Virus record (IMG/VR): IMGVR_UViG_3300046786_000304
Coordinates: 64,001 to 128,000 of that record
DNA from: a virus
Lineage: Duplodnaviria > Caudoviricetes
DNA length: 64,000 bases
Strand: one strand, 5' to 3'
The notes below the pieces were generated by a model that ran no database searches, had not been told where the DNA came from, and worked only from the letters and a program-made list of their open reading frames with translations. This document shows, piece by piece, positions 28,752 to 43,103 of the stretch; the stretch's first letter is position 1, and each line of letters begins with the position of its first letter. The translations under genes and the position numbers were made by a program.

Positions 28752-31700
28752 CGACCGATCCTAATGTTGCTGTCAGTAATTTCTGAAATAACTATGATAT
28801 CATTTACCGTTGCTACGCTGGTAACAACTTCATTTCTGTCTGGTTGAATTTGGAATAAAGTACCAAATTTGCTGTCTTGACTTAATGGAACAATAACCAC
28901 ACTACTTAAATCTGTGCTTAAACTTGTGTGTATGTATGCTGCCAATTCAGTGAAGTAAAAAATTTCGCCGAAGTTAAAATTACCTGGTGTAAAAAATTTA
29001 TCGACAGCGGCAATTACTTTGCTTTTTATTTCGCTGTCTGTTAATTTACTTTTTACATTCTTAACTACTTTGAATTGTGCTTGGAATTCTTTGTCTGCTA
29101 AGTTACCAAACAATGGTTTAAATTTAACAGGATGGAATATTAATTCATCTGTCATCATTTTATAACTTAGTAATCCAGCAAAACTACTTCTTAGTTCTTC
29201 TGTTGTTTGTGGCAAAGGTGCAGTAATGCTGGTATTTCCGCTTTTCTTCCAACTAGTGTAATCATCGTTGTAGCTTTTCGTTAAAACATACGCATCGATA
29301 ATATTAGTCAAGCTTGGATTCAATGATTGATCTATGTCAACTACGTGTTCCCACTTAAAGGATAATGTATTTGTCCCTGGTACTGTTTTAACACCGTCTG
29401 CTACGTCGCCTGAAAGAGGAACCAAGTATGTGAAATCACCTTCGTCGTATTCAACTAAAGTTAAACTATCATTGCCTACAGTAGAAATAAAATGTTCAGG
29501 ATCGTCTGGCAAGAAATCATTGTCCAAGTCTAATGGTGTAACTTTAACTTTACTATTGTCAGTATATCCATCGTCATAGACATAATATCCGCTGATCTTA
29601 TAAGCCTTAGACTCTTGTATTTTATTGTTTGTACCTAAGGTTAATAAACTGATAGTATCTTTGCTCATTGAAGAGAAGCTTGGATTAAATGTAGGACTCC
29701 AATTGATGTTATAGAATCTAATAAGTTCGTCACTGCCAAAGATATAATCAAGTTGACGAATAGTAATCTTCCAGCCAGCGCCATCTCTTATACAGGCTAT
29801 TAACCATTCATTGTTATCGCCGGTTCTGTTCCATGTTGATTCGATATTAACTAAGTTATTAATTATAGTCCATCGTGGTGTTAAGTTATCAAATTTTAAT
29901 GCAAAGCTTTCTTTGGCATTTAACTTGGCAATAATTGCCGCTCTTGTTAAATCATCAAACACGCGAGTAAATGGAGGTAAAATTTCCTTAATTAAATCAG
30001 TCGATGTAATAGACTTACTAAGTTCAACAGTACCCATACCATTAACTAGCAAACCTGTATAAACATAATCAATGTCTTCAATGCCTAATCCATCGCCTTT
30101 AACGTCATACACGTTGGCCCAACGTGAAGTGCCTTCCGGTGTTTGTAATCTTAATATTGATCCAGGACGCAAAGAACGCAGTTCTCCGCCTGTTGTAAAT
30201 CCTAATTTTACTGGAGCTTTGTTGCCATTGGATTCGGAAATATAACCATTGCTACTATTGGCATCATTGTATGCCAGTCTCCAACGATAGTCTAAAACTT
30301 TATAAACTCTAGATCCAGCAGTATGACTTGCGGATGCAGTCCCTTGTGTGGCACGTTGAACTCCAATAAATGTTGTGCTATTCTGCATGCCAGTGTACGT
30401 AAACAATTCATCGCCGATCATTAACATGCCACCGTCGATGTCAAAATTATCATAAGGATCATCTGTGTTTGTATGATCAACTACTAATGAATTAAAAACA
30501 TCATTGACACCAATCGCATTGGTTAACGTAGTGTAATAAATTGTTTTTCCTAGTGTAACTGTTGGAAAATAATTTAACGCATTATTTCCAGTGACTCCTT
30601 GTAGATTTAATTTACCATAGTAAAAGTTTAACAAGCCAACATTACTTAATTTGCTTTCAATGTATTCGTCTAATAAGTCCACAGTTCGGCGAGTGCTGTC
30701 ATCTGGAACAAATGCATTTTTAACAGATTCTTCTTTGTATAGATAGCCGTCATCGGCAAATTCCATCAATGGGCGATTCTTGCCTGTTGGATCTTTCAAG
30801 TCAACATATCTGCTATGTCCACTGAATGTTCTATTTTCCGCTTTAAGCACTAATACGTCGTTGTTTAATGTAGGTAAAAATCCGTTGTAGTCATCGGCAG
30901 TAACCATTCTATTTTTACTATAGAATGCTTCTGGTGCGTTGCGTTTAATTTCATCTATAGATTCTGCAGGCAAGCCTGTAACCATGTTGTCCTGCAACTC
31001 CATTGTCAGTGACAATGTCTGTGTTTGGTTGTCTGCGTTACGATAGCTAATATCAAAAGTAACACCAGCGATTTCTCCTGACTTGACTCTGATGAAATTA
31101 TTTTCTGCTGTTCTATACCATACACGAATATTACCAGTAGGAACATTAGTAAACGTACCGTCACCAAATTTAATACTTGTTACGTCATTGTCTGTGTATA
31201 ATACTTCATATATGTCTTTGTTCGCTGAACCATATTCGTTGACAACAATGTTACTAAAGTCCAAGTTACTAACTCGTGTCCATGTTTTAATTACAGATCC
31301 GTTGTCGTCAATTGTTTGTACATAAAAATCTTCTTCACTGATATTATTAGTCAAAGGAATATCAATAACAGCGTTGGCAACTGGACTTGTTATAGGCTCT
31401 ATGGTATTAGAAATATAGCCTTGTTTGGCTAAAAAGAAGAAACCAGTTTTTGTACTGCCAACACCTTTGCCATCATTACGATACATTACACTAAATGAAT
31501 TGTTATAATCTGGTTCGACTTGAGAAATAATACCCGCTGTGTTAATATCAACTGGCACTAAATCAAAGTTTAAATTATAACCATCAACTGTAGCACGAAT
31601 AGGCAAATTAACAATAGCGTTTGTATTATTAAAATTATATATTTCGTATAATGTATTGTTTGTGCTGTTGGTTGTTCGTTTAACTGGATTACCAAATTTA

Positions 31701-32203
31701 TTGTTGTCATTGAAAGCGGCGTTCATGACTCTAATGAAACGTTCATATTCTAATTCGCTGGGATCACTGCCCCACTGTATAGTTTTATTAGATAAGTTTA
31801 CACCTGTGCTGTCAATGATTTGGTCGCTACTAACTGCACTTACTACTTTTAAAAATCCTTGGGCAGGGCGAACACGCTTAGGTTTATAAGACAGCATACG
31901 TGCGATGCGTAATACGCTTTCACGCTTTTCTGCTGTGTCCAGAATGTTTTCTCTGGCATTCAAATCCATACGGAACGCTAGATTTTGTCCTACATAAGCT
32001 ACTAAGTCTAATAAGGCAATGAATTCACTGTTTTGAATATAGTCATTGTATTCTTCAGGATAGTTAGTCTGCATGTAAATAACCATGCTTTGACGCAATG
32101 TGTCAAAATCATAGCTAATAAATTCAGCGTTTTTAAAACTAGAGTAAACTATACTCCAATCTTCCGCTCCATATAAGTTTTCTTGTCTGATTGCTTTTGG
32201 CAT
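28748..32203 (-). CDS. gp6: Baseplate wedge subunit, T4 gp6-like
   Basis: DFDTLR..LDLVAYV..ARENILDTAEKRESVLRIARMLSYKPK; ESIDEIKRNAP..RMVTADDY. Confidence 0.85.
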   Translation of the reverse strand: MPKAIRQENLYGAEDWSIVYSSFKNAEFISYDFDTLRQSMVIYMQTNYPEEYNDYIQNSEFIALLDLVAYVGQNLAFRMDLNARENILDTAEKRESVLRIARMLSYKPKRVRPAQGFLKVVSAVSSDQIIDSTGVNLSNKTIQWGSDPSELEYERFIRVMNAAFNDNNKFGNPVKRTTNSTNNTLYEIYNFNNTNAIVNLPIRATVDGYNLNFDLVPVDINTAGIISQVEPDYNNSFSVMYRNDGKGVGSTKTGFFFLAKQGYISNTIEPITSPVANAVIDIPLTNNISEEDFYVQTIDDNGSVIKTWTRVSNLDFSNIVVNEYGSANKDIYEVLYTDNDVTSIKFGDGTFTNVPTGNIRVWYRTAENNFIRVKSGEIAGVTFDISYRNADNQTQTLSLTMELQDNMVTGLPAESIDEIKRNAPEAFYSKNRMVTADDYNGFLPTLNNDVLVLKAENRTFSGHSRYVDLKDPTGKNRPLMEFADDGYLYKEESVKNAFVPDDSTRRTVDLLDEYIESKLSNVGLLNFYYGKLNLQGVTGNNALNYFPTVTLGKTIYYTTLTNAIGVNDVFNSLVVDHTNTDDPYDNFDIDGGMLMIGDELFTYTGMQNSTTFIGVQRATQGTASASHTAGSRVYKVLDYRWRLAYNDANSSNGYISESNGNKAPVKLGFTTGGELRSLRPGSILRLQTPEGTSRWANVYDVKGDGLGIEDIDYVYTGLLVNGMGTVELSKSITSTDLIKEILPPFTRVFDDLTRAAIIAKLNAKESFALKFDNLTPRWTIINNLVNIESTWNRTGDNNEWLIACIRDGAGWKITIRQLDYIFGSDELIRFYNINWSPTFNPSFSSMSKDTISLLTLGTNNKIQESKAYKISGYYVYDDGYTDNSKVKVTPLDLDNDFLPDDPEHFISTVGNDSLTLVEYDEGDFTYLVPLSGDVADGVKTVPGTNTLSFKWEHVVDIDQSLNPSLTNIIDAYVLTKSYNDDYTSWKKSGNTSITAPLPQTTEELRSSFAGLLSYKMMTDELIFHPVKFKPLFGNLADKEFQAQFKVVKNVKSKLTDSEIKSKVIAAVDKFFTPGNFNFGEIFYFTELAAYIHTSLSTDLSSVVIVPLSQDSKFGTLFQIQPDRNEVVTSVATVNDIIVISEITDSNIRIGR

Positions 32204-32208
32204 CGCTG

Positions 32209-32595
32209 TTATCCTTGTGTTCTGCTTAATGCTGTGTCTCGACTAAATGTAGCAATAAGCTCAGTCAATGTTGCTGTGGGCACATAGTTTAATACAATCG
32301 CTACTGTGATAATCTGGGAATCGATGTCTTCTCTAACATCTAATTGTCTTAATTCTAGTCTAGGATCTTTAGTCAATATTCTTTCCATGTCTTCGGTAAT
32401 CAATTCAATCATTTGTTCTGATATAGGATCAAACAACAAATCCCATACTATACTACCAAAATCTGGACTCATGATTCGTTCACCTTTGCGAGTGTATAAC
32501 TCGTTCAAAAGGTCCTGTTTGGCAAGTTCAATGTCATATAACTTGAAGTTGCCCCACTGTTTGTTTACTGTACTAAAGCCTTTAAATTTACGCAT
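32209..32595 (-). CDS. gp25: Baseplate wedge protein, gp25/GPW-like
   Basis: FKGFST..YDIELAKQDLLNEL.TRKGERIMSPDFGS..LLFDP..DPR. Confidence 0.85.
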   Translation of the reverse strand: MRKFKGFSTVNKQWGNFKLYDIELAKQDLLNELYTRKGERIMSPDFGSIVWDLLFDPISEQMIELITEDMERILTKDPRLELRQLDVREDIDSQIITVAIVLNYVPTATLTELIATFSRDTALSRTQG

Positions 32596-32600
32596 ACTCA

Positions 32601-32608
32601 TATTTATT
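32601..32608 (-). promoter_or_regulatory. Late promoter-like AATAAATA, 5 nt before ATG (leaderless geometry)
   Basis: Box followed by N5 and the ATG at 32595. Confidence 0.6.
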
Positions 32609-32644
32609 ATAAAATAATATAAGTAGTTAACGATAGGACACACT

Positions 32645-32863
32645 ATGAACAAAAATGATTGGCAAGCAAAAAATATTCCAGATACTGTTAATATCATCTG
32701 CGAAAACAACAACAAAGCAATGACTGCCAATGTCATTGACATGAATGATAGACTGTTAATCGCGGCTATACAAGGCGTTAAGATTACATTGATTAGTCAG
32801 CACGAAAACGGCATATATGCCGGTAAAATGGGCGGCTTAGATTTAATTTACAAGTCAAAATAA
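32645..32863 (+). CDS. Hypothetical protein
   Basis: 72-aa ORF with AGGA upstream, ending at a terminator. Confidence 0.6.
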   Translation: MNKNDWQAKNIPDTVNIICENNNKAMTANVIDMNDRLLIAAIQGVKITLISQHENGIYAGKMGGLDLIYKSK

Positions 32864-32884
32864 AAGGGGCAAGGCCCCTTTTAT
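32860..32884. terminator. Bidirectional intrinsic terminator
   Basis: ATAAAAGGGGC-AAG-GCCCCTTTTAT perfect inverted repeat between convergent genes. Confidence 0.85.
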
Positions 32885-33426
32885 TCGTTTACTGCCCTAG
32901 GCTTATCGTCATCGTAGCCTAAATACTCTCCCCATGCTGGATCTCTCATTGAATAAGGAATAATATTTTTGGCAGCTTTGACCATCTGCCAATAGTTAGG
33001 TTCTTTTGGCACAGTCAGTGGTTCAATTACTTTAGCACCTTTCAGCCAGTTACATGTACCACAGCAAGTAACTAAGTTACTCCAACTACTGCCGCCGCCA
33101 CGACTTTTTGGTTTTACGTGATCCAGTGTCAAGTCTTTGGCTTGGAACTGTTCTCCGCAGTATTGGCAAGTATAGTTGTCGCGCAGATAAACCATTTTAC
33201 GGTTAAACAATACTTTTTGTCGTGGGCGAACATAGCGTTTAGTCATAACGATGCTGGGAACTTTTAATTCCATTCGTTGACTTCGTACTGTCCAATCGTC
33301 ATATTCTTTAATCACCATAACTTTGTTCAAGTAAAGTAATTTGACTGCCAATTGCCAATCAATCACACTGGGAGGTAGCATACTCAGCGGCATACCGTCG
33401 TGGTTTAAAACTAATGTATCACTCAT
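32881..33426 (-). CDS. HNH endonuclease
   Basis: RDNYTCQYCG..LTLDHVKPKSRGG..WSNLVTCCGTCNWLKG. Confidence 0.92.
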   Translation of the reverse strand: MSDTLVLNHDGMPLSMLPPSVIDWQLAVKLLYLNKVMVIKEYDDWTVRSQRMELKVPSIVMTKRYVRPRQKVLFNRKMVYLRDNYTCQYCGEQFQAKDLTLDHVKPKSRGGGSSWSNLVTCCGTCNWLKGAKVIEPLTVPKEPNYWQMVKAAKNIIPYSMRDPAWGEYLGYDDDKPRAVNE

Positions 33427-33460
33427 AACTAAAATGGTATTTATTTTGGGTACAGCGGCA

Positions 33461-33488
33461 TTGACGCCATTGAAAATAATTATACAAT
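33461..33488 (+). promoter_or_regulatory. Sigma70-like promoter
   Basis: TTGACG-N16-TACAAT upstream of AAGGAG and the ATG at 33536. Confidence 0.5.
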
Positions 33489-33535
33489 ATTAAATACATT
33501 GTGTCAACACACATTCTGTAAGAAAGGAGCTAAAA

Positions 33536-33745: not shown

Positions 33746-34175
33746 CACTACACTAGCAAACTTAGATTATATTATTGAAACTTTAGAAAAACTATCCGCC
33801 GACTTACATAAAAATTCGGTGGATAGTTACCCTTACGATGTTTATAAAGAATATGATGCAAAAAATTTACAATGTTTAAAAGCTATAAATTATTTTTCTA
33901 ATTTAAGGGTTTTAAAAGAAATAGAAATTGGTTATACTGGACACGACTTTAATGTCGAGTATCAAACACGTAGATACAATCAATTAGAAAAATTTCATTT
34001 TATCAGCAATGACGATGATCGCAGTGATATCCATCGAGCCATGACTAGTTTACAAACTGAGTTGATTCAACACAAATATCGAAGAGAAACCAGTAAGCTA
34101 ATAATGTTTGATATCGACTTACCAGAGTCGATAGCAGATATAACTAAAAGTCTTGGTTTAATTAATAATCGTTAA
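33726..34175 (+). CDS. Hypothetical protein
   Basis: 149-aa ORF overlapping the previous gene. Confidence 0.55.
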   Translation: MNMITTNTTLANLDYIIETLEKLSADLHKNSVDSYPYDVYKEYDAKNLQCLKAINYFSNLRVLKEIEIGYTGHDFNVEYQTRRYNQLEKFHFISNDDDRSDIHRAMTSLQTELIQHKYRRETSKLIMFDIDLPESIADITKSLGLINNR

Positions 34176-34513
34176 ACTATTCGATGAGAACTTAAAACTT
34201 TACCTGAAGTATAATCAGAAACTTCTAATTCCAATGTATGATTGGCATTTTTAAAATAAGCTGATCTTTCATGTGACATGTTAGGTAATTTTTTTGAAAT
34301 ATTCTCTTCCATTGAAAACCATTGATCTACATCATTGAGAACAAAGGACATTGTATATGAATCGCCGTTATACTGATACTCTGGCATAATTCCCAATGAT
34401 TCACATATTCCTAGTACAATCCTTTTATATTCTATTAGCTTTGGGTCCGAGGATTCCCACCATAGCTCGACGTCACGATTGGGGCGGCTTCCTTTAAAAC
34501 TAAATTTTATCAT
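34172..34513 (-). CDS. Hypothetical protein
   Basis: 113-aa ORF with GGAG ribosome-binding site. Confidence 0.55.
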   Translation of the reverse strand: MIKFSFKGSRPNRDVELWWESSDPKLIEYKRIVLGICESLGIMPEYQYNGDSYTMSFVLNDVDQWFSMEENISKKLPNMSHERSAYFKNANHTLELEVSDYTSGKVLSSHRIV

Positions 34514-34568
34514 TGTAATCTCCGGTATGTGGTACTAAATATTTTGAATATTTATTAAGGTACATCAA

Positions 34569-35192
34569 ATGTATACAACAAAATTAATCTCTGTGGAAGA
34601 TTTGCATTTAGTAGAAGCTGTAATGCGTAGTAATCCACGTGGACCCGAAAGGGCCAATGGAGATTTAATGTCGGACGCTGAAATAAAAGGTACCGTCGCT
34701 CATTATGAACAAAAAATAAAAGAAGGCGTTATCAAAATTGTATTGCTTCTTGAAGATGATAAGCCAATGGCATTTTATAGTGCTTACATCTTACAGTCAG
34801 TGGGCGGATGGGTTATTCATGGCCCCAGAGTAGCCGAGGTAAATAACTCGTATATTACTACTGCTAAAATGTGTGCTCCGGCATTAGATGCGCTATTAGA
34901 GCACATGGAAAGTTTAATGTACTTTAAATTTTGGCAGGTTGATGCAAGGAATAGACACATCCATCGACGAAACTTAATGGAAAAATATTCCAAGAATCAG
35001 GGTCGTTATGACTACTATAACGAAATTCTTATTCCAGGCGGCAACAAAACCGGTATTGTTGTATTTGATAATTTTGCGGCACAATATGTTGGTACATCAG
35101 ATAGGATGATACGAATGTTTGTGTTAAAACAAGAATATCGCGATCCGTTGATAGAAAATTACTACGAAAGAAACAAAAATGAAACTATTTAA
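34569..35192 (+). CDS. Hypothetical protein, possible GNAT-fold acyltransferase
   Basis: Alternating alpha/beta pattern (IVLLLEDDKPMAFYSAY). Fold guess only; coupled to the desaturase gene. Confidence 0.35.
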   Translation: MYTTKLISVEDLHLVEAVMRSNPRGPERANGDLMSDAEIKGTVAHYEQKIKEGVIKIVLLLEDDKPMAFYSAYILQSVGGWVIHGPRVAEVNNSYITTAKMCAPALDALLEHMESLMYFKFWQVDARNRHIHRRNLMEKYSKNQGRYDYYNEILIPGGNKTGIVVFDNFAAQYVGTSDRMIRMFVLKQEYRDPLIENYYERNKNETI

Positions 35193-35976
35193 ATTTTGGG
35201 AAGGTATTGGCGAGAATATTAAACGAGTTTATATTCCTGCCCATATACTTACTATCATAGGTATAATAACATTGTTCAATGGATCAACAGAATTAAGCTG
35301 GCTTTGGCTAGTTTATCCGGCTTGGTTCTTATTTGGACACATTGGATTTGGTATTTTTATTCACAAATACTATTGCCACAGAAGCTTTGAGACATATCCA
35401 TGGATCGCAAGAATCGGTTGCTTTTTAGGAATGATGGTTGGTACTGGTAGTCCTATTATGTTGCGTGTCATGCACATCGGTTATCATCATCCAAACAGCG
35501 ACACTGATTTAGATCCACATTCTCCTAACAGAGGCTTTTGGTGGAGTTATTTCTTGTGGTTGAATCACAAATGGAATTTTAAGAAGATGTGGCTGGCCAA
35601 AGATTTAGTACAAGATCCATGGATGAGAGTATTCCACAGACATTATTATAAAATATACTGGGGCGTGTTCTTGTTGCTTTGTTTAGTTGATTGGAGACTA
35701 GCTGTGTTTACTATCAGTACCGCAACTGTTATTGAATTTCACTTGTCTGGAATTGTTAACTCTGTGGGACATACAAAACATTGGGGTAGCTATCAAAATT
35801 ATCCGGATGTAGACAGAAGTCAAAACATGCCATTGTTTAATTTATTAACATTGGGATTGGGCTTACATAATAACCATCATGGCCGACCAGGCGAATGGGA
35901 TTATGCACATAAACCAGGTGAGATTGATTTTGCAAAATGGTTTGTACCGCTAATTATGAAAAAGGAAACAAAATGA
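35179..35976 (+). CDS. Membrane-bound fatty acid desaturase (delta-9-like)
   Basis: Three His boxes HKYYCH, HIGYHH, HNNHH; DPHSP; hydrophobic segments. Confidence 0.92.
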
Positions 35977-36215
35977 GCGTTGACGAGAGTAAAGTTAAAA
36001 AAATTATTGCTAGACAGTTTGGCATTGCTGTAGAAGCCGTGAAGAATGAAAGTTCATTCGTTAACGATCTAGGCGGAGATAGTTTAGATACTGTTGAGCT
36101 TCTACTAGAAATCGAAGATATTTTTGATATCGAGATTCCAGAAGATGTAGCAGAAAACCTAAGCACAGTTCAAGAAGCAATCGATTATTTGAACTCTGTA
36201 GTAGTAACCAATTAA
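35973..36215 (+). CDS. acpP: Acyl carrier protein
   Basis: [12 protein letters not shown] phosphopantetheine motif, [14 protein letters not shown]; ATGA overlap with the desaturase stop. Confidence 0.95.
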
Positions 36216-36216
36216 C

Positions 36217-36951
36217 TTATAACAAGTTAGCGTTTGCTAATGTTAAAGGATCTCCGGCGATTTTTAGATTAATGTTAATCGTCAATCTATCGTCGGGGCC
36301 TTCATTCCAAGCACTATGATACTTTCCAGTATCAAAGAAATACCAATTACCATCCGCAGGTATTTGGAATTTATCCCCATTTACTTCATACCACGCATTT
36401 TCGCCGCCTTTGACCGTGGCATGTAATCTTATTGTTCTATAATAAGGAAAATCTACGTGACTGCTAAGATAGCCTTTTCTTCTTAATTCTAATAGACTGG
36501 CTTTGGATACTTCTGATTTAAAAACTGAAAACACGTTCTTAAAGTAGTCATTGTATATACTTGTCGGAGAATTAAAATCATTTTCGTAGAGTTCTGGTAA
36601 TTGATTAGGCAAGTACAAATCATCAGAATATACTAGACCTACATTGACATCTCTTCTTACAAAGTGGTCGCTTAATGGATTTGTTGCGTTTTCTCTTGCG
36701 AAAAAACCTAAACCTCTATACCTATTGTACTTTTTACCTTCAGCGTTTCTATCAATGCTCTGTGCTTCATTGTTATCCAATAACAACTCAACTTGTTTTT
36801 GCATTTCGTTGATGTCAAAGCTATAGTACGACGGTAATTTAAAATAATTGTAATTTAATTTAGGTTGAACATTGTACCATTCATCCAATGGTTTACTATG
36901 CTTTATAGTGTCTATAGAATCGCCCCAGGGCGTATCAAAATTCGTTTTCAT
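36217..36951 (-). CDS. 2OG-Fe(II) oxygenase, aspartyl/asparaginyl beta-hydroxylase family
   Basis: LSSHVD (HxD), IRLH, FFDTGKYHSAWN..DRL. Confidence 0.8.
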   Translation of the reverse strand: MKTNFDTPWGDSIDTIKHSKPLDEWYNVQPKLNYNYFKLPSYYSFDINEMQKQVELLLDNNEAQSIDRNAEGKKYNRYRGLGFFARENATNPLSDHFVRRDVNVGLVYSDDLYLPNQLPELYENDFNSPTSIYNDYFKNVFSVFKSEVSKASLLELRRKGYLSSHVDFPYYRTIRLHATVKGGENAWYEVNGDKFQIPADGNWYFFDTGKYHSAWNEGPDDRLTININLKIAGDPLTLANANLL

Positions 36952-37834
36952 ATTTTTTAAGATGAATAAACCAAGGAGCTAATTTAAAGTCTTGTGTTAC
37001 TCGTCCACGTCTGGTATTTCCTTCTTCAGGAAGCACACTTCCGGGAGGACTCCAGTCTGTTATCTTAACCCAAGAAGAAGTATATTTTTTATTTTCTTCT
37101 ATAGGGAAAAATACTACATTTTTTTCTGTATAGCCATTAATAGTATTTTGTGTGCGGGCCCAGTTAGGGTCTACACCAACTTGTTCGCAGACTAAATCAA
37201 TCATTTCTTCTACTGTCCAGTTATCGGATTTTTCTAAAGAATAACGACCTATTTGTCCTACATTACGGAATCGCAATATTGCTTTGCCACCAAAACCATT
37301 TACTAACTCTAGTAAACGTTTAGGTACATTATCGTTTACGCCTTTTTGTAAAATTGCGCCGACGTTAACATTCATCTTAACACTTAAACATTCTTCCAGT
37401 GCTTTAACTTTACGTTCGGCCCAACTACCGCCGCCATCCATTATTTTATAAATTTCATTGTCGTCGGCGCCGTTCATGCTTAGATAAATGCTACGCATTC
37501 CAGCATCAACTAATTCTCTGGCATAACCAGGTCTTGCTAACATAAGACCATTGGTCATCATAGTAGGACGATGTCCTCGAATTTTGATGTTATGTACAAT
37601 GTCTACTAAGTCTGCGCGAACTGTGGGCTCACCACCAATTAATCTAACTTCCACTTTGTTAGGCAATTGATCAAGTAACTCATAAAATTTATTTGCGTCA
37701 GCATCAGGAGTTGTCCTTAATGGTGTATAACAATTGGCACATTCCATATTACACTTATGCGTGATATCAATGCCTATGCTATAAAAATGGTTGTCTTTGG
37801 GCTCTAGCTCGTAGTAGTTGTTTAAGTTTAACAT
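36935..37834 (-). CDS. Radical SAM protein (MoaA-like fold)
   Basis: DITHKCNMECANCY, LIGGEPT, TNG. Confidence 0.9.
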   Translation of the reverse strand: MLNLNNYYELEPKDNHFYSIGIDITHKCNMECANCYTPLRTTPDADANKFYELLDQLPNKVEVRLIGGEPTVRADLVDIVHNIKIRGHRPTMMTNGLMLARPGYARELVDAGMRSIYLSMNGADDNEIYKIMDGGGSWAERKVKALEECLSVKMNVNVGAILQKGVNDNVPKRLLELVNGFGGKAILRFRNVGQIGRYSLEKSDNWTVEEMIDLVCEQVGVDPNWARTQNTINGYTEKNVVFFPIEENKKYTSSWVKITDWSPPGSVLPEEGNTRRGRVTQDFKLAPWFIHLKKYENEF

Positions 37835-37839
37835 ATAAT

Positions 37840-37847
37840 TATTTATT
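37840..37847 (-). promoter_or_regulatory. Late promoter-like AATAAATA, 5 nt before ATG
   Basis: Box followed by N5 and the ATG at 37834. Confidence 0.6.
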
Positions 37848-37861
37848 GGCCTGCTTCTATA

Positions 37862-37890
37862 TAGACACAAATTGTATATTTTAGTATAAT
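37862..37890 (+). promoter_or_regulatory. Sigma70-like early promoter
   Basis: TAGACA-N17-TATAAT; AGGAG before the ATG at 37920. Confidence 0.7.
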
Positions 37891-38269: not shown

Positions 38270-39583
38270 ATGGACAAACCTTGGCAAGTTATCAGCGATT
38301 TGGAAAACCATCCTAGTCGACTGAACAAAGAAGCTATTATTCAAGTTCAAGCCGAAGCAGGCAACAGCGAGTTTTTCGAAGGATGTAGATTGGCTCTAGA
38401 TCCAATGATTACTTTTGGACTTAAACAAATTCCAGAAAAAACTGAAGCAGATGGGCCTGGGTTGGCCTGGGATAGCTTCACTCTTATTACCACAGGTTTT
38501 GTTAATCGTGGTCTCACAGGCAACCTTGCTCGTGACACAGTTAATCAATTAATGAATACTGCCACAAAGGCTGAATGGAATGGTTGGTATCGTCGTATTC
38601 TTATTAAAGACTTGCGATGTGGTACCAGTGAAAAAACAATTAACAAAGTTGTGGAGAAGAAATATGCTAGCTATAGTATCCCTATTTTTGGTTGTCAGCT
38701 TGCTCATGATAGTGCTAATCATGAAAGTAAAGTTACAGGCCAAAAGCTTATCGAAGTCAAACTTGACGGGGTTCGTATTATTACTATTGTCTATCCCGAC
38801 GGCCGTGTTGATCAATTTAGCCGCAATGGCAAGGAACTTGTAAACTTTCCTCATATTAAAAAGCAGTTTGCCAGTATTGCCAGCAATTTGCTTGAGCCAT
38901 GGGTTTTCGATGGCGAGATTATGTCTAGCAGTTTCCAGGATTTAATGAAGCAAGTACATCGTAAAAGCGACGTCAATGCCAACGATGCTGTACTGCATTT
39001 ATTTGATTGTATTCCACTTGTTCATTTTGAACAAGGGCTATGGAATGCTACACAAGAATTCCGTAGCAGTCATTTGAAAACTTTTATAGAAACACACCAA
39101 GCCTCGTTGCCTAATGTAACAATGGTTGGACAGGAACTTGTTGATCTTGACACCATTAAAGGTCAAGCCCGTTTTAAAATGATCAACGCACAGGCTGTAG
39201 CCGGTGGTTATGAAGGCATTATGATTAAAGACCCCAATGCTACTTACGAATGTAAACGTAGTGTAGCATGGTTAAAACTAAAGCCATTTATCGAAGTATC
39301 ATTGGAGGTTACAGATGTTGAAGAAGGCACTGGCAAAAATGAAGGACGCCTTGGGGCTCTTGTTTGCTCCGGCGACGACGATGACCGACGAATTACAGTC
39401 AATGTTGGTAGTGGCTTTAGCGATGATCTTCGAACTAGCGTTTGGGATAGTCGTAATAGTGTCATTGGTCAAATTGTTGAAGTAAGAGCAGATGCTATTA
39501 CACAGAATCAAGACGGAACTTATAGTCTTAGATTCCCTCGCTTTTTGCGATTCCGTGGATTTGTTCCCGGAGAAAAACTATAA
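38270..39583 (+). CDS. lig: ATP-dependent DNA ligase
   Basis: EVKLDGVR (KxDG), FDGEI, EGIMIK, WLKLKP, VGSGFSD, SLRFPRF. Confidence 0.95.
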   Translation: MDKPWQVISDLENHPSRLNKEAIIQVQAEAGNSEFFEGCRLALDPMITFGLKQIPEKTEADGPGLAWDSFTLITTGFVNRGLTGNLARDTVNQLMNTATKAEWNGWYRRILIKDLRCGTSEKTINKVVEKKYASYSIPIFGCQLAHDSANHESKVTGQKLIEVKLDGVRIITIVYPDGRVDQFSRNGKELVNFPHIKKQFASIASNLLEPWVFDGEIMSSSFQDLMKQVHRKSDVNANDAVLHLFDCIPLVHFEQGLWNATQEFRSSHLKTFIETHQASLPNVTMVGQELVDLDTIKGQARFKMINAQAVAGGYEGIMIKDPNATYECKRSVAWLKLKPFIEVSLEVTDVEEGTGKNEGRLGALVCSGDDDDRRITVNVGSGFSDDLRTSVWDSRNSVIGQIVEVRADAITQNQDGTYSLRFPRFLRFRGFVPGEKL

Positions 39584-40495: not shown

Positions 40496-40854
40496 CAAAC
40501 CCTTTTAAAGACCAAGAAAAATTTATGCGAGCCTGTGACCAAAGTGTCGAAGGCTTTAATCAAGATCAATTCAGACTATATGTTAATCTAATCAAAGAAG
40601 AATATACAGAACTCGGCGAAGCAATCAATAACAGCGATCAAGTTGAAACACTAGACGCACTAATTGATATTTTAGTTGTTACCATTGGTGCCATCCACAG
40701 CATGGGTGCGGATGCTGAAGGTGCTTGGAAAGAAGTTATGAGTACAAACTTTACTAAGATTGACAAAGAAACTGGCAAAGTTCGTAAACGTGAAGACGGT
40801 AAAGTTCTAAAGCCCATTGGTTGGGTTGCCCCTGAACTTAGACCCTTTGTTTAA
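40492..40854 (+). CDS. MazG-like / PRA-PH family NTP pyrophosphohydrolase
   Basis: LIKEEYTEL..DALIDILVV..EVMSTN..K..RKREDGKVLKP. Confidence 0.85.
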   Translation: MTNPFKDQEKFMRACDQSVEGFNQDQFRLYVNLIKEEYTELGEAINNSDQVETLDALIDILVVTIGAIHSMGADAEGAWKEVMSTNFTKIDKETGKVRKREDGKVLKPIGWVAPELRPFV

Positions 40855-43103
40855 TACGGCCACGGGCCAGTAAATCCTTGTTTGGCAATCGTTGCTAAAT
40901 TGCCATCGGTTGCGTTTTGACTTACTTGATTATTAAACTCAAAGGTTGACCCAATAACTGGTTCTCCTGTTTGATTAAAATAATTAGTTGCGGCAGCAAG
41001 TGTTTGCTGATTAGTTGCAGCCGAAGCAGTTTGTTGATTCAATCTGCCTTTGGCAATTAATTCATTTACTCTGGCCATACCTTTGTCAATAACTTGTTGT
41101 TCATTGACTTCTGGACCGTAGTTATTGTTGGCAATAATACTGGCTTCTAAAATTCTTCTATTTCTATCTCGTTCGTCGGCAGCAATAAAACTAGCGGCTT
41201 GATCCCATGCTTCTTCTTTGTACAATGTAGTTAAATCTACTTTTTGTCCTTTTACAAAAGCCATACTAGCATCACCTGTTTGATTTTGTAAACTAACTAG
41301 GCCATCAAATACATTCTGTGGTATATTTTTTACACCTGCAGAAGATAGCATATTTTTAACGCTACGTTGATTTCTAGCTAAATCATTGTATAACATATCC
41401 TGTGCCTTGTCAGGACTAATACCTTGACTTAGCATCTTAGATACGTCAGCGGCAGAACCAGATCCAACTGAAACTCCTCCAGCAACTGTAGTACCGGATG
41501 GAGATATCTTATCTGTTACACTATTCAATCCATTGGCTATTGTATCGCCGGCTGCTTTTAGTTTAGCACCAAAGTCTTTGAATATATTTTTACCTAATAA
41601 TACTGCTCCGTTACCTGGCGGTAAATTTAAATCAAAACCTTTTGCGCCAGTATAAGGAGGTGTAGGTTTTTGTGGAACTATCACGCTTCCATATCCACCA
41701 CTTTCTCCTTTGGCATCTGCTGTATTTACAGGAGTGTATCCGTTTTGTTGTTTAATAACACTTACCATCTTATCGCTGACTGTAGCAGATTCAACTGCAA
41801 CTGGTTCGTCTTTATTAGGCGTTGGTACTACAGGTGCTGGTGTTTCATTTGTTTTTGGTTTTCTAGGTTGTTCTTGACTTGGCGCAGGATCTTTTTGCAT
41901 CTGCATGTTGCCAGTACCGATTGGATTAATCATGCCACTGTGGCCAGCCCACGGTTCATGTTCTGGTACAATACTACAAATACTTTCTTTAACACCTTGA
42001 TTCACTGCCAAATTGTACATTGGAATTTCATTGGCAGCATCAGCAGTTGGGCCGTTCATGTGTATAACACCAGCTGTTTCATAATGGCCTACGCCACTTA
42101 ATATGCTACTTGTTTCACCGCTGGTAATTTTAGTATTGCTGCCAGCTAACGTTGAAATTTCATTGCCCGCAGATAATTGAACATTTCCGTTATTAGCTTT
42201 CATATTAATATTAAGTCCTGCTTGCATATTAATATTGTTGTCTGCGTATAAGTTAATATTTTCTTGACTTCTAATGCTTATATCTTTACTACCATACAAA
42301 TGAATTCTTCCGTCAGCACTTAACTCTACCCAGCTTTCTCCATTTTTACTAATAAGATAAATGTGCCCAGCAACGTCGTCTAACAATAGTTGTGTGCCAT
42401 TTGTTGTTCTTAATCTAATTAATTTGTTGTTACCGTCTTTGTCACCATCGTCCAGGACTAACTGGTGTTGGCCAGGAGTTAATAGTCCAATAACTTTACT
42501 AGGAGCTTCGCGCATTGCTCCGCTGGTTGTAGTTCCTCTCAGCGGATCATTTTCTAATCCCTGAGTTTTTAATGCTTTATATGCGGGCTCATGAGCAACA
42601 TATTTTGTTAAATCTGCGTCTAAATCTTTTTTATTTTTAGGCGCAACTGGTATGTTATCACCTTTGTGTGTTTTACCTGAAGGTATACCAGGTACACTAA
42701 CTTGTGTGCCTCTTTGGAACATACAAGCAAACCAATAACATTTATCAGTTTTACCATCAGCAAATGTAACTAATACTTGAGCATCGATGTCAGGAGGTAC
42801 AGCCCAAAAGCCATAGCTTTTCATTGTATCGCTGTATTCTTCTACATTAGTGCCTTGGTCAAATATACTCGTTGATCCTGCGAATGGACTAGCATAACTA
42901 GCAACATACCAGCTAGAGTCTACTTCGGGGTCACCGCCTAACTCAGGAATGTATACCTGTAGTCTTCCCATGTTTTGGCTATCGTCATTCTTTTTTACAA
43001 TACCAACATATACGCCATATAATCTAGGTACGCCGGCACCTCGGTTGTCTGTATAACTTGCTGGGGCTTTTCTATTACCATTTGGATTTGCAACTCTTGC
43101 CAT
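40851..43103 (-). CDS. gp5: Baseplate hub/spike protein, gp5/VgrG-like, with degenerate lysozyme domain
   Basis: OB-fold N-terminus (GIVKKNDD..GRLQVYIP..GFWAVPPDIDAQVLVTF), beta-helix region, HEPW, C-terminal GH24-like domain. Confidence 0.8.
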   Translation of the reverse strand: MARVANPNGNRKAPASYTDNRGAGVPRLYGVYVGIVKKNDDSQNMGRLQVYIPELGGDPEVDSSWYVASYASPFAGSTSIFDQGTNVEEYSDTMKSYGFWAVPPDIDAQVLVTFADGKTDKCYWFACMFQRGTQVSVPGIPSGKTHKGDNIPVAPKNKKDLDADLTKYVAHEPAYKALKTQGLENDPLRGTTTSGAMREAPSKVIGLLTPGQHQLVLDDGDKDGNNKLIRLRTTNGTQLLLDDVAGHIYLISKNGESWVELSADGRIHLYGSKDISIRSQENINLYADNNINMQAGLNINMKANNGNVQLSAGNEISTLAGSNTKITSGETSSILSGVGHYETAGVIHMNGPTADAANEIPMYNLAVNQGVKESICSIVPEHEPWAGHSGMINPIGTGNMQMQKDPAPSQEQPRKPKTNETPAPVVPTPNKDEPVAVESATVSDKMVSVIKQQNGYTPVNTADAKGESGGYGSVIVPQKPTPPYTGAKGFDLNLPPGNGAVLLGKNIFKDFGAKLKAAGDTIANGLNSVTDKISPSGTTVAGGVSVGSGSAADVSKMLSQGISPDKAQDMLYNDLARNQRSVKNMLSSAGVKNIPQNVFDGLVSLQNQTGDASMAFVKGQKVDLTTLYKEEAWDQAASFIAADERDRNRRILEASIIANNNYGPEVNEQQVIDKGMARVNELIAKGRLNQQTASAATNQQTLAAATNYFNQTGEPVIGSTFEFNNQVSQNATDGNLATIAKQGFTGPWPY

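Follow-up and report, generated by a model that had tools for sequence, protein, structure and literature searches.

A predicted phage gene cluster for the tailoring of acyl chains on a dedicated acyl carrier protein

The gene set and its layout

The 64,000-nucleotide stretch of DNA analyzed here, the window in the following, comprises bases 64001-128000 of the 233 kb IMG/VR virus record IMGVR_UViG_3300046786_000304, which is ~65% complete according to CheckV. The source is an uncultured freshwater T4-like jumbo phage. Within a gap of its T4-like baseplate module five densely packed genes are located. They code for a GNAT-fold protein, a membrane desaturase, an acyl carrier protein (ACP), an AspH-like oxygenase, and a radical SAM (S-adenosylmethionine) enzyme. 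Judged by sequence comparisons and structure models, these genes probably constitute one functional module, i.e., a phage-encoded, ACP-centred pathway which tailors a fatty acyl chain and then passes it on. The set is a phage auxiliary or biosynthetic gene cluster composed of known enzyme superfamilies; its single components are already known from such phages. The five genes are, with their length in amino acids (aa) and the basis of the assignment:

34569-35192, plus strand: GNAT-fold protein, 207 aa, putative N-acyltransferase, a sequence orphan (fold model)
35179-35976, plus strand: SCD1/DesC-type membrane di-iron fatty-acid desaturase, 265 aa (PF00487)
35973-36215, plus strand: AcpP-like ACP, 80 aa (TIGR00517, PP-binding)
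36217-36951, minus strand: AspH-family Fe(II)/2-oxoglutarate oxygenase, 244 aa (PF05118)
36935-37834, minus strand: single-cluster radical SAM enzyme, 299 aa, with a GDGT-MAS/Tes-like overall fold (PF04055)

The genes form two arms which converge such that a single base separates the stop codons (36215, 36217). Within the arms they are interlocked: an overlap of 14 nt joins the GNAT and desaturase genes, one of 17 nt the radical SAM and AspH-like genes, and the tetranucleotide ATGA is common to the desaturase and ACP genes (ATG 35973-35975, TGA 35974-35976). The initial annotation, made from the sequence by itself, had reported these five open reading frames (ORFs) and their overlaps including the ATGA, and reading the sequence bears it out. 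Its calls of a desaturase, an ACP, a hydroxylase and a radical SAM enzyme also hold, and Pfam backs four of the five genes. By comparison with homologues the radical SAM gene starts with the ATG at 37834, not with the TTG at 37870. A search for terminator-like hairpins between or after the two arms found none.

The sequence of the record was met in freshwater metagenomes by independent runs. One run, from another study, contained 88% of the sampled words of the cluster.

Conservation of the gene set among phages

The linkage of the genes is conserved. Six contigs, first found via the desaturase, all have the order GNAT > desaturase > (extra desaturase) > (AcpS) > ACP converging on the AspH-like and radical SAM genes; overall, this layout of the window is present in about ten IMG/VR contigs. 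A radical SAM profile search of IMG/VR yielded 66 loci. A different picture emerges in the subclade L011-L016, in which the order is radical SAM > desaturase > ACP > GNAT, all on one strand with overlapping genes and without an AspH gene. In the radical SAM tree this subclade is nested within the clade of the window. Thus, the linkage of four genes outlasted a rearrangement, and the set can do without the hydroxylase. The overlap or adjacency of the desaturase and ACP genes is kept in the relatives, in both layouts. Failure of the genes to co-occur elsewhere had been named as one of the observations that would overturn the initial annotation; they are found together in about ten contigs and, rearranged, in a subclade.

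The partnership also emerges when no family is preselected. When 1195 ORFs surrounding 64 radical SAM homologues were clustered blindly, all against all, the top neighbours were the desaturase (30 loci), the ACP (29 loci, at a median distance of 13 bp from the radical SAM gene) and the AspH-like oxygenase (22 loci). Our own panel of hidden Markov models (HMMs) likewise places desaturase, ACP and AspH-like proteins as the top three co-located families. When near-identical radical SAM loci were collapsed to 36 lineages, AspH-like partners were counted in 27, desaturases in 16, ACPs in 15 and GNAT-fold proteins in 11; 27 of 36 is an upper estimate because the HMM iteration pulled in a 167-aa family and may have widened the profile. 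A search of IMG/VR with the GNAT family retrieved 12 loci, 11 of which are on contigs also retrieved by the radical SAM search. In one contig (L078 4275-5453) a GNAT-fold domain is naturally fused to a prolyl-hydroxylase-type oxygenase domain, 2OG-FeII_Oxy_3. The fusion gene overlaps the end of a radical SAM gene of the same family and is preceded by tail-fibre-like genes.

One might argue that unrelated auxiliary genes met by chance in one hypervariable region and form no functional unit. Plastic regions of T4-like aquatic phages collect miscellaneous genes, and stearoyl-CoA desaturase and AspH have been given as separate auxiliary metabolic genes (PMC7029224). We disfavour this view and regard it as hardly credible: the linkage outlasts rearrangement of order and strand, the genes overlap, a GNAT-oxygenase fusion is positioned beside a radical SAM gene, bacterial operons combine the same families, and the ranking of neighbours was unbiased. 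The earlier proposal of a compact acyl-group pathway rather than isolated metabolic genes is thus supported by the conserved linkage and by the unbiased ranking.

In GenBank phages (50,697 records) megablast with the whole cluster and tblastn with the GNAT and radical SAM proteins were all without match. For the desaturase the sole match there, at 29% identity, is in Pelagibacter phage Mosig.

Two variations in the surroundings of the genes may be recorded. A class II aldolase/adducin-domain protein is inserted between desaturase paralogues in L006 (4162-4866; PF00596, 3e-45) and in L028 (10021-10737), the latter copy being likened by its first residues alone. In L033 (7893-9627) and about ten similar loci of a marine-looking lineage the radical SAM gene is followed by genes similar to IMP dehydrogenase (IMPDH)/GMP reductase and by truncated AMP-binding-like genes, and a B12-radical SAM gene is located upstream; this is a differently wired context for the same radical SAM family.

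The desaturase, the acyl carrier protein and its activating enzyme

By sequence the desaturase is of the SCD1/DesC type. It matches PF00487 (FA_desaturase) with an E-value of 6e-19 and 69.2 bits (cut-off 29.7), and among solved structures the mammalian acyl-CoA desaturases 4zyo and 4ymk come closest. Three histidine boxes supply all nine His ligands of the di-iron site, i.e., His 62, 67, 99, 103, 104, 198, 230, 233 and 234, which are invariant in 16 sequences; a DPH motif is present as well. Hydrophobic hairpin segments are located at ~17-35 and 159-182. That the substrate may be ACP-bound is suggested by a sole argument, the linkage of the gene to that of the ACP.

The ACP scores 90.9 bits with the AcpP equivalog TIGR00517 (cut-off 70.45) and matches PP-binding at 1.4e-14. 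The phosphopantetheine motif DSLD (D36, S37, L38, D39) is invariant, the modifiable serine being Ser37. It is the one PP-binding gene in the whole 233 kb record. A 120-aa AcpS-type phosphopantetheinyl transferase is encoded outside of the window at G000:C1:220387-220749 (= L076 1492-1854), ~120 kb from the single ACP gene; the AcpS profile matches at G000:C1:220396-220689 with an E-value of 1.2e-15. In the relatives L004, L007 and L013 (E 1.4e-14 in L013) the AcpS gene resides within the cluster. The record, ~65% complete as it is, has no ketosynthase that could be found and no PF00501 (AMP-binding) match, i.e., no JamA-type acyl-ACP ligase.

The GNAT-fold protein

The product of the first ORF has no match in Pfam, PHROG or NCBIfam, in Pfam at any threshold. 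The same is true for its relatives: no Pfam match was obtained even at an E-value of 10, neither for 8 members of the GNAT family nor for 55 wider members. The fold is different in this respect. An AlphaFold2 (AF2) model computed with eight homologues (pLDDT 86.6) has the canonical GNAT topology (beta1-alpha1-alpha2-beta2-4-alpha3-beta5-alpha4-beta6-7). Foldseek against the PDB retrieved SpeG and RimI with probability 1.0 and E ~1e-7. VIA-align superimposed RimI 5isv and 1ghe with Z up to 14.4 and a root-mean-square deviation (rmsd) of 2.8-4.5 over 153-155 residues, and a shape search of the ESM Atlas with the model gave TM-scores of 0.60-0.66. The best structural matches include protein N-terminal acetyltransferases. 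Thus, a GNAT assignment which had been weak initially is now firm at the level of the modelled fold; the role as an acyltransferase is putative. A first ORF that is not an acyltransferase had been another of the refuting observations named initially, and at the fold level the proposal withstands it.

The Q/RxxGxG/A pyrophosphate loop is absent: the beta4-alpha3 loop (residues 89-95) is devoid of Gly in the protein of the window and in the family consensus. Such a sequence fits a donor other than CoA, without being proof of it. Enzymes of the LuxI, FeeM and OlsB type do not figure among the 50 best matches of the model; only generic acetyltransferases are present there, so this does not exclude them. 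The family is small, with 103 clusters among 1.8 billion representatives. By sequence it is fast-evolving. Compared with relatives the identity amounts to 26-33% for the GNAT-fold protein vs 46-81% for the neighbouring gene products. A complex prediction of the GNAT-fold protein with the ACP, carried out without control runs, scored 0.01, which speaks neither for nor against an interaction.

The radical SAM enzyme

The radical SAM enzyme matches PF04055 (6.6e-19, 69.1 bits, cut-off 29.5). The motifs CNMECANC (CX3CX2C) and GGEPT are invariant, with C28, C32, C35 and G67-x-E69 conserved in 20 sequences. The protein has a total of five Cys, so it lacks an auxiliary cluster; the two Cys outside of the SAM-cluster motif are not conserved across the family. 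When the AF2 model (pLDDT 86.9) was compared with known structures by VIA, the archaeal tetraether synthase GDGT-MAS was on top (7tom_A, Z 25.7, rmsd 3.1, 291 of 299 residues), followed by MoaA with Z 20.5. In Swiss-Prot the best TM-score normalised to the query, 0.74, belongs to MJ0619, and GDGT-MAS is also the best PDB match by sequence (1.6e-14). With the tetraether synthase equivalog NF045702 the phage protein attains 64.6 bits, below the cut-off of 450. In the ESM Atlas the family is overwhelmingly viral.

GDGT-MAS carries four metal sites. A lipid tail is led through a hydrophobic tunnel to the 5'-deoxyadenosyl (5'-dA) site, and the auxiliary clusters are needed (PMC9433317). From the model we infer that the phage enzyme accepts a hydrocarbon chain but carries out a chemistry other than that of GDGT-MAS. 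Viperin was considered as another relative; PADLOC reported a weak, core-only pVip match (48 bits), which was rejected as its Z of 17.6 compares with 25.7 for GDGT-MAS.

The proximity to MoaA raises the question of nucleotide or cofactor chemistry. The cluster would then serve the modification of DNA, nucleosides or cofactors and not of lipids. MoaA families rank with the better matches in NCBIfam and Swiss-Prot, and in one distant lineage the IMPDH/GMP-reductase-like and AMP-binding-like genes follow that of the radical SAM enzyme. We consider this very improbable. MoaA aligns fewer residues and is 5 Z units below GDGT-MAS, the C-terminal cluster cysteines of MoaA are absent, and the genes most often found alongside code for a membrane desaturase and an ACP.

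The AspH-like oxygenase

With PF05118 (Asp_Arg_Hydrox) the fifth protein obtains 6.7e-6 and 26.5 bits at a cut-off of 22.6. H165, D167 and H212, the HxD...H triad, are invariant, as is R222 which binds 2-oxoglutarate. Among solved structures the caprazamycin beta-hydroxylase Cpz10 (7v4f), an enzyme for small molecules, comes nearest (PMC9814697). Since the nearest solved relative hydroxylates a small molecule, family membership does not reveal the substrate. LpxO itself was tried and rejected, the NF033391 equivalog giving 16.7 bits vs a cut-off of 500. A pattern search of 185,579 prokaryote genomes with the AspH-like alignment found no relative; copies beside bacterial radical SAM homologues were later found by our own HMMs.

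In all six close relatives L002-L007 a protein of 167-172 aa, missing from the window, adjoins the cluster (e.g., L004 4829-5332). Iterated HMMs tie this family to the AspH-like cupins, and we read it as a short AspH-like paralogue.

Bacterial relatives

A pattern scan of prokaryote genomes with the radical SAM family identified 15 loci, ten of them in Bdellovibrionota. Several of the latter are AspH > desaturase > radical SAM operons without an ACP gene of their own. One such cluster, on two Bdellovibrionota contigs from metagenome-assembled genomes (MAGs; L099 1200-11000 and L100), comprises genes for a GNAT-like protein, two AspH-like proteins, an FA_hydroxylase (PF04116), an HTTM-like protein, a desaturase, a Tes-like radical SAM enzyme and a B12-radical SAM enzyme; it has the appearance of a lipid-modification locus not described so far. 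At 34-40%, the GC content of the Bdellovibrionota MAG contigs is similar to that of the phage (36%). In the tree, the bacterial radical SAM sequences are interspersed with the phage branches at three or more positions.

A further contig, L107, was binned into a Crocinitomicaceae MAG. Here, genes of phage-structural appearance surround a radical SAM-desaturase pair; probably this is a phage contig which was mis-binned.

The proposed pathway

In the ACP-centred pathway the phage AcpS would activate the AcpP-like ACP. Most likely the ACP would be loaded by type II fatty-acid synthesis of the host because the record encodes neither a ketosynthase nor an acyl-ACP ligase. The membrane desaturase of the SCD1/JamB class would then unsaturate the ACP-borne, or just transferred, chain. 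The GDGT-MAS-like radical SAM enzyme, equipped with the SAM cluster only, would attack the hydrocarbon chain by radical chemistry, plausibly at the double bond just formed or beside it. The AspH-family oxygenase would add a hydroxyl group, an optional step since the nested subclade is without an AspH gene. Finally, the GNAT-fold protein would transfer the ACP-borne acyl group to an amine acceptor. The product would be an N-acyl lipid, a small molecule or an acylated macromolecule. Tailoring may precede or follow the transfer; either order is allowed.

Several observations weigh against this pathway. The Pfam score of the AspH-like protein barely exceeds the cut-off. The radical SAM enzyme has none of the auxiliary clusters which GDGT-MAS requires for C-C coupling (PMC9433317), and MoaA-type, i.e., nucleotide-related, enzymes are its second-best structural relatives. 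The GNAT-fold protein lacks both the usual loop and a match to any Pfam acyltransferase family, hence it may be non-catalytic, or may load rather than unload the ACP. Lastly, in the Bdellovibrionota operons and at many distant phage loci the radical SAM gene is accompanied by AspH and/or desaturase genes without an ACP gene. As such ACP-less loci exist, the enzymes could act on intact membrane lipids as do DesC, LpxO/OlsC and GDGT-MAS.

The last point may be extended to the whole cluster. The desaturase, the AspH-like oxygenase and the Tes-like radical SAM enzyme would remodel the host membrane by acting directly on intact host lipids (phospholipids, aminolipids, lipid A); the part of the ACP and the GNAT-fold protein would be limited to supplying or boosting an N-acyl (OlsB-like) lipid or the fatty-acid synthesis of the host, and no tailoring would take place on the ACP. 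We view this, the main rival of the ACP-centred pathway, as possible, if unlikely. LpxO and OlsC act on intact lipids. The same holds for the DesC-like vFADs of cyanophages (PMC5776448) and for GDGT-MAS (PMC9433317). The AspH > desaturase > radical SAM operons of Bdellovibrionota do without an ACP, as do many phage radical SAM loci with AspH or desaturase genes, and the one bacterial locus which adds a GNAT-like protein and an FA_hydroxylase recalls OlsB/OlsC/OlsE. What argues against membrane remodelling is the overlap of the desaturase and ACP genes, i.e., translational coupling, in both layouts, the position of the ACP gene immediately beside that of the radical SAM enzyme in several distant lineages, and the recruitment of a dedicated AcpS into the cluster. 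Late-type promoters, described below, would also be odd for a control of membrane fluidity.

Late-type boxes and probable late expression

Both arms of the cluster are headed by a TAAATA box:

34536-34541, plus strand: TAAATA late-type box, reads CTAAATA, 27 nt upstream of the GNAT-fold gene
37840-37845, minus strand: TAAATA late-type box, reads AATAAATA, 5 nt upstream of the radical SAM ATG

The initial annotation had pointed to late-type boxes at these positions. Their presence before both arms is upheld by the statistics of the motif class and by conserved position; the full T4 late octamer TATAAATA is matched by neither box (CTAAATA in the plus arm, AATAAATA in the minus arm). Exact copies of TATAAATA occur three times in the window. 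A lone hexamer carries little weight, but the motif as a class is informative. TAAATA is depleted in the window, with 58 copies found vs 118 expected. The remaining copies are not randomly placed: 17 of 58 (29%) are located within 60 nt upstream of gene starts vs 5% for A/T hexamers overall, and TAAATA is the most start-concentrated of all 64 A/T hexamers. In the relatives TAAATA precedes the GNAT ATG by 4-8 nt in seven of seven cases and the radical SAM ATG by 4-8 nt in eight of nine (five of six with the layout of the window, three of three rearranged), with differing surrounding sequence. Taken together, 15 of 16 homologous starts of the two genes have the box at this distance. Consensus sigma-70-like sites are present before the flanking ligase and HNH genes, none before the two arms. 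By its sequence features this supports T4-style late transcription of the cluster, possibly with very short leaders. The gap of 4-8 nt in L002-L007 and L011-L013 leaves no room for a Shine-Dalgarno sequence, which suggests leaderless or near-leaderless late mRNAs in this group of phages. The cluster is probably expressed along with the late genes.

In three freshwater metatranscriptome runs contigs of 151-261 nt were identified which are 100% identical to the GNAT and desaturase genes. They are a weak hint at expression as DNA carry-over is possible; they cover parts of these two genes only, and the uncovered rest is not evidence of silence.

The timing and the location invite yet another explanation. 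The AspH-like oxygenase, the RimI/Nat-like GNAT-fold protein and the radical SAM enzyme could modify a baseplate or fibre protein late in infection, and the ACP and the desaturase could supply a lipid to be attached by the GNAT-fold protein. The plastic gap inside the baseplate module and the late-type boxes are in line with such decoration of the virion, as are the protein N-terminal acetyltransferases among the GNAT matches and the fact that oxygenases of the AspH family and of the P4H type often act on proteins. The GNAT::2OG-oxygenase fusion of L078 is positioned right behind tail-fibre-like genes; phage Mosig has AspH, FA_desaturase, MoaA-like radical SAM, TauD and GNAT genes beside tail-fibre genes; and the fast evolution of the GNAT-fold protein fits a variable acceptor. 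Nevertheless, we deem this explanation improbable. It comes without an identified candidate acceptor protein, the Bdellovibrionota homologues reside in non-phage contexts, and the nearest structure of the radical SAM enzyme is a lipid enzyme and not a peptide maturase, without SPASM or twitch domain.

To a more daring version of the ACP-centred pathway we accord a rather small chance. A novel acyl group would be made late in infection: the desaturase would act on the ACP, then the single-cluster Tes-like radical SAM enzyme would perform at the olefin a C-C or C-H chemistry so far without precedent in bacteria (e.g., ring closure, branching, adenosyl addition), and the GNAT-fold protein would attach the product to a baseplate or fibre protein or release it as an N-acyl signal or membrane-active lipid. 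If true, the outcome would be either a tailed-phage particle carrying lipid or a lipid effector made by the phage.

Comparison with known systems

JamBC-type desaturase-ACP pairs are the closest working analogy. In the JamABC/TtuABC terminal-alkyne pathway (bioRxiv 10.1101/291195; PMC8341276) a membrane desaturase of the SCD1 class is likewise combined with a small ACP gene of its own. JamB needs its cognate ACP and was modelled on SCD1 (4ZYO/4YMK; bioRxiv 10.1101/291195), i.e., its templates are the nearest structures of the phage desaturase. The differences are evident. The phage record has no match to a JamA-type ligase, and the phage set adds a Tes-like radical SAM enzyme, an AspH-like oxygenase, a GNAT-fold protein and late-type promoters.

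Desaturases are known from aquatic T4-like phages, vFAD-I and vFAD-II of cyanophages (Roitman et al., 2017, PMC5776448) and a stearoyl-CoA desaturase of pelagimyophages (PMC7029224). They are of the delta-9/SCD family and share the histidine-box architecture with the phage desaturase described here. These desaturases were described as stand-alone auxiliary metabolic genes acting on membrane glycerolipids; from the text on the vFADs 'acyl carrier' is absent (PMC5776448). In contrast, the gene of the present desaturase shares an overlap with that of an ACP and has radical SAM, AspH-like and GNAT genes as linked partners.

With GDGT-MAS/Tes (MJ0619; 7tol, 7tom; PMC9433317), whose active site takes the alkyl tail of a lipid, the phage radical SAM enzyme shares the fold. 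However, it is ~200 residues shorter and has neither the rubredoxin domain nor both auxiliary [4Fe-4S] clusters. The cluster-sulfur intermediate of GDGT-MAS is not usable by the phage enzyme.

In the biosynthesis of ornithine and other aminolipids OlsB is an N-acyltransferase which uses acyl-ACP, OlsC belongs to the AspH family and OlsE to the FA_hydroxylase family. The classes of enzymes are the same as in the phage, i.e., an acyl-ACP-type N-acyltransferase fold, an AspH-family hydroxylase and membrane di-iron oxygenases, and the Bdellovibrionota locus L099 adds PF04116. The GNAT-fold protein differs in having no sequence match to any Pfam acyltransferase family, that of OlsB included, and the phage set lacks an OlsA-type O-acyltransferase. 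To our knowledge, a radical SAM enzyme is not part of any described Ols pathway.

In pelagimyophages and cyanomyophages, the host recognition cluster and the plastic regions (Zaragoza-Solas et al., 2020, PMC7029224), and likewise phage Mosig (MT647606), contain AspH-like, FA_desaturase, MoaA-like radical SAM, TauD and GNAT genes near tail or baseplate genes. There, the genes were listed and a conserved ACP-centred operon was not defined (PMC7029224). A full-text literature search found no paper which treats these genes as one operon.

Hitherto, lipid genes of phages have been viewed as single auxiliary genes which adjust host membranes. Here, the conserved set would be a multi-enzyme pathway with a carrier of its own, which in relatives has the activating enzyme AcpS within the cluster, which extends over at least 36 radical SAM lineages of aquatic phages, and which is shared with Bdellovibrionota. 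Enzymology gains three new targets: a GNAT-fold family which sequence profiles fail to detect, a phage clade of SCD-like desaturases linked with an ACP, and a stripped-down relative of the archaeal tetraether synthase with the SAM cluster only. From the identity of the product one could tell if tailed phages produce lipids, lipid signals or lipidated virion parts of their own. At 3.3 kb, to which the AcpS gene has to be added, the cluster can be expressed as one piece.

Neighbouring genes

The surroundings of the cluster in the window are as follows:

28748-32203: gp6-like gene, upstream of the cluster
32209-32742, minus strand: gp25-like gene (longest ORF), upstream of the cluster
32881-33507: HNH endonuclease gene, between the gp25-like gene and the cluster
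34172-34513, minus strand: conserved divergent gene, 113 aa, possible accessory member, with an ATAAATA box of its own (34549-34554, minus strand)
38270-39583: DNA ligase gene, downstream of the cluster
40851-43103: gp5-like spike gene, downstream of the cluster

The 113-aa gene is a possible accessory member of the cluster. Homologues adjoin the GNAT gene in L003, L005 and L006. Family searches in Pfam, PHROG and NCBIfam were without match; the Atlas gave weak look-alikes of the alpha+beta type, RusA by features (0.79) and ABM/NIPSNAP-like shapes (TM ~0.5).

The HNH endonuclease gene is probably a mobile element inserted into the baseplate gap. Its start is preceded by a TAAATA box at a distance of 11 nt, and a perfect TTGACA-17-TATAAT site (33507-33479, minus strand) is present as well.

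The longest ORF of the gp25-like gene opens with a hydrophobic extension of 47 residues which is absent from homologues. A TAAATA box (32601-32606, minus strand) is located directly before internal Met codons at which the gp25-like homologue of L003 begins. The true start is probably at ~32595-32601, which would make it another near-leaderless late gene.

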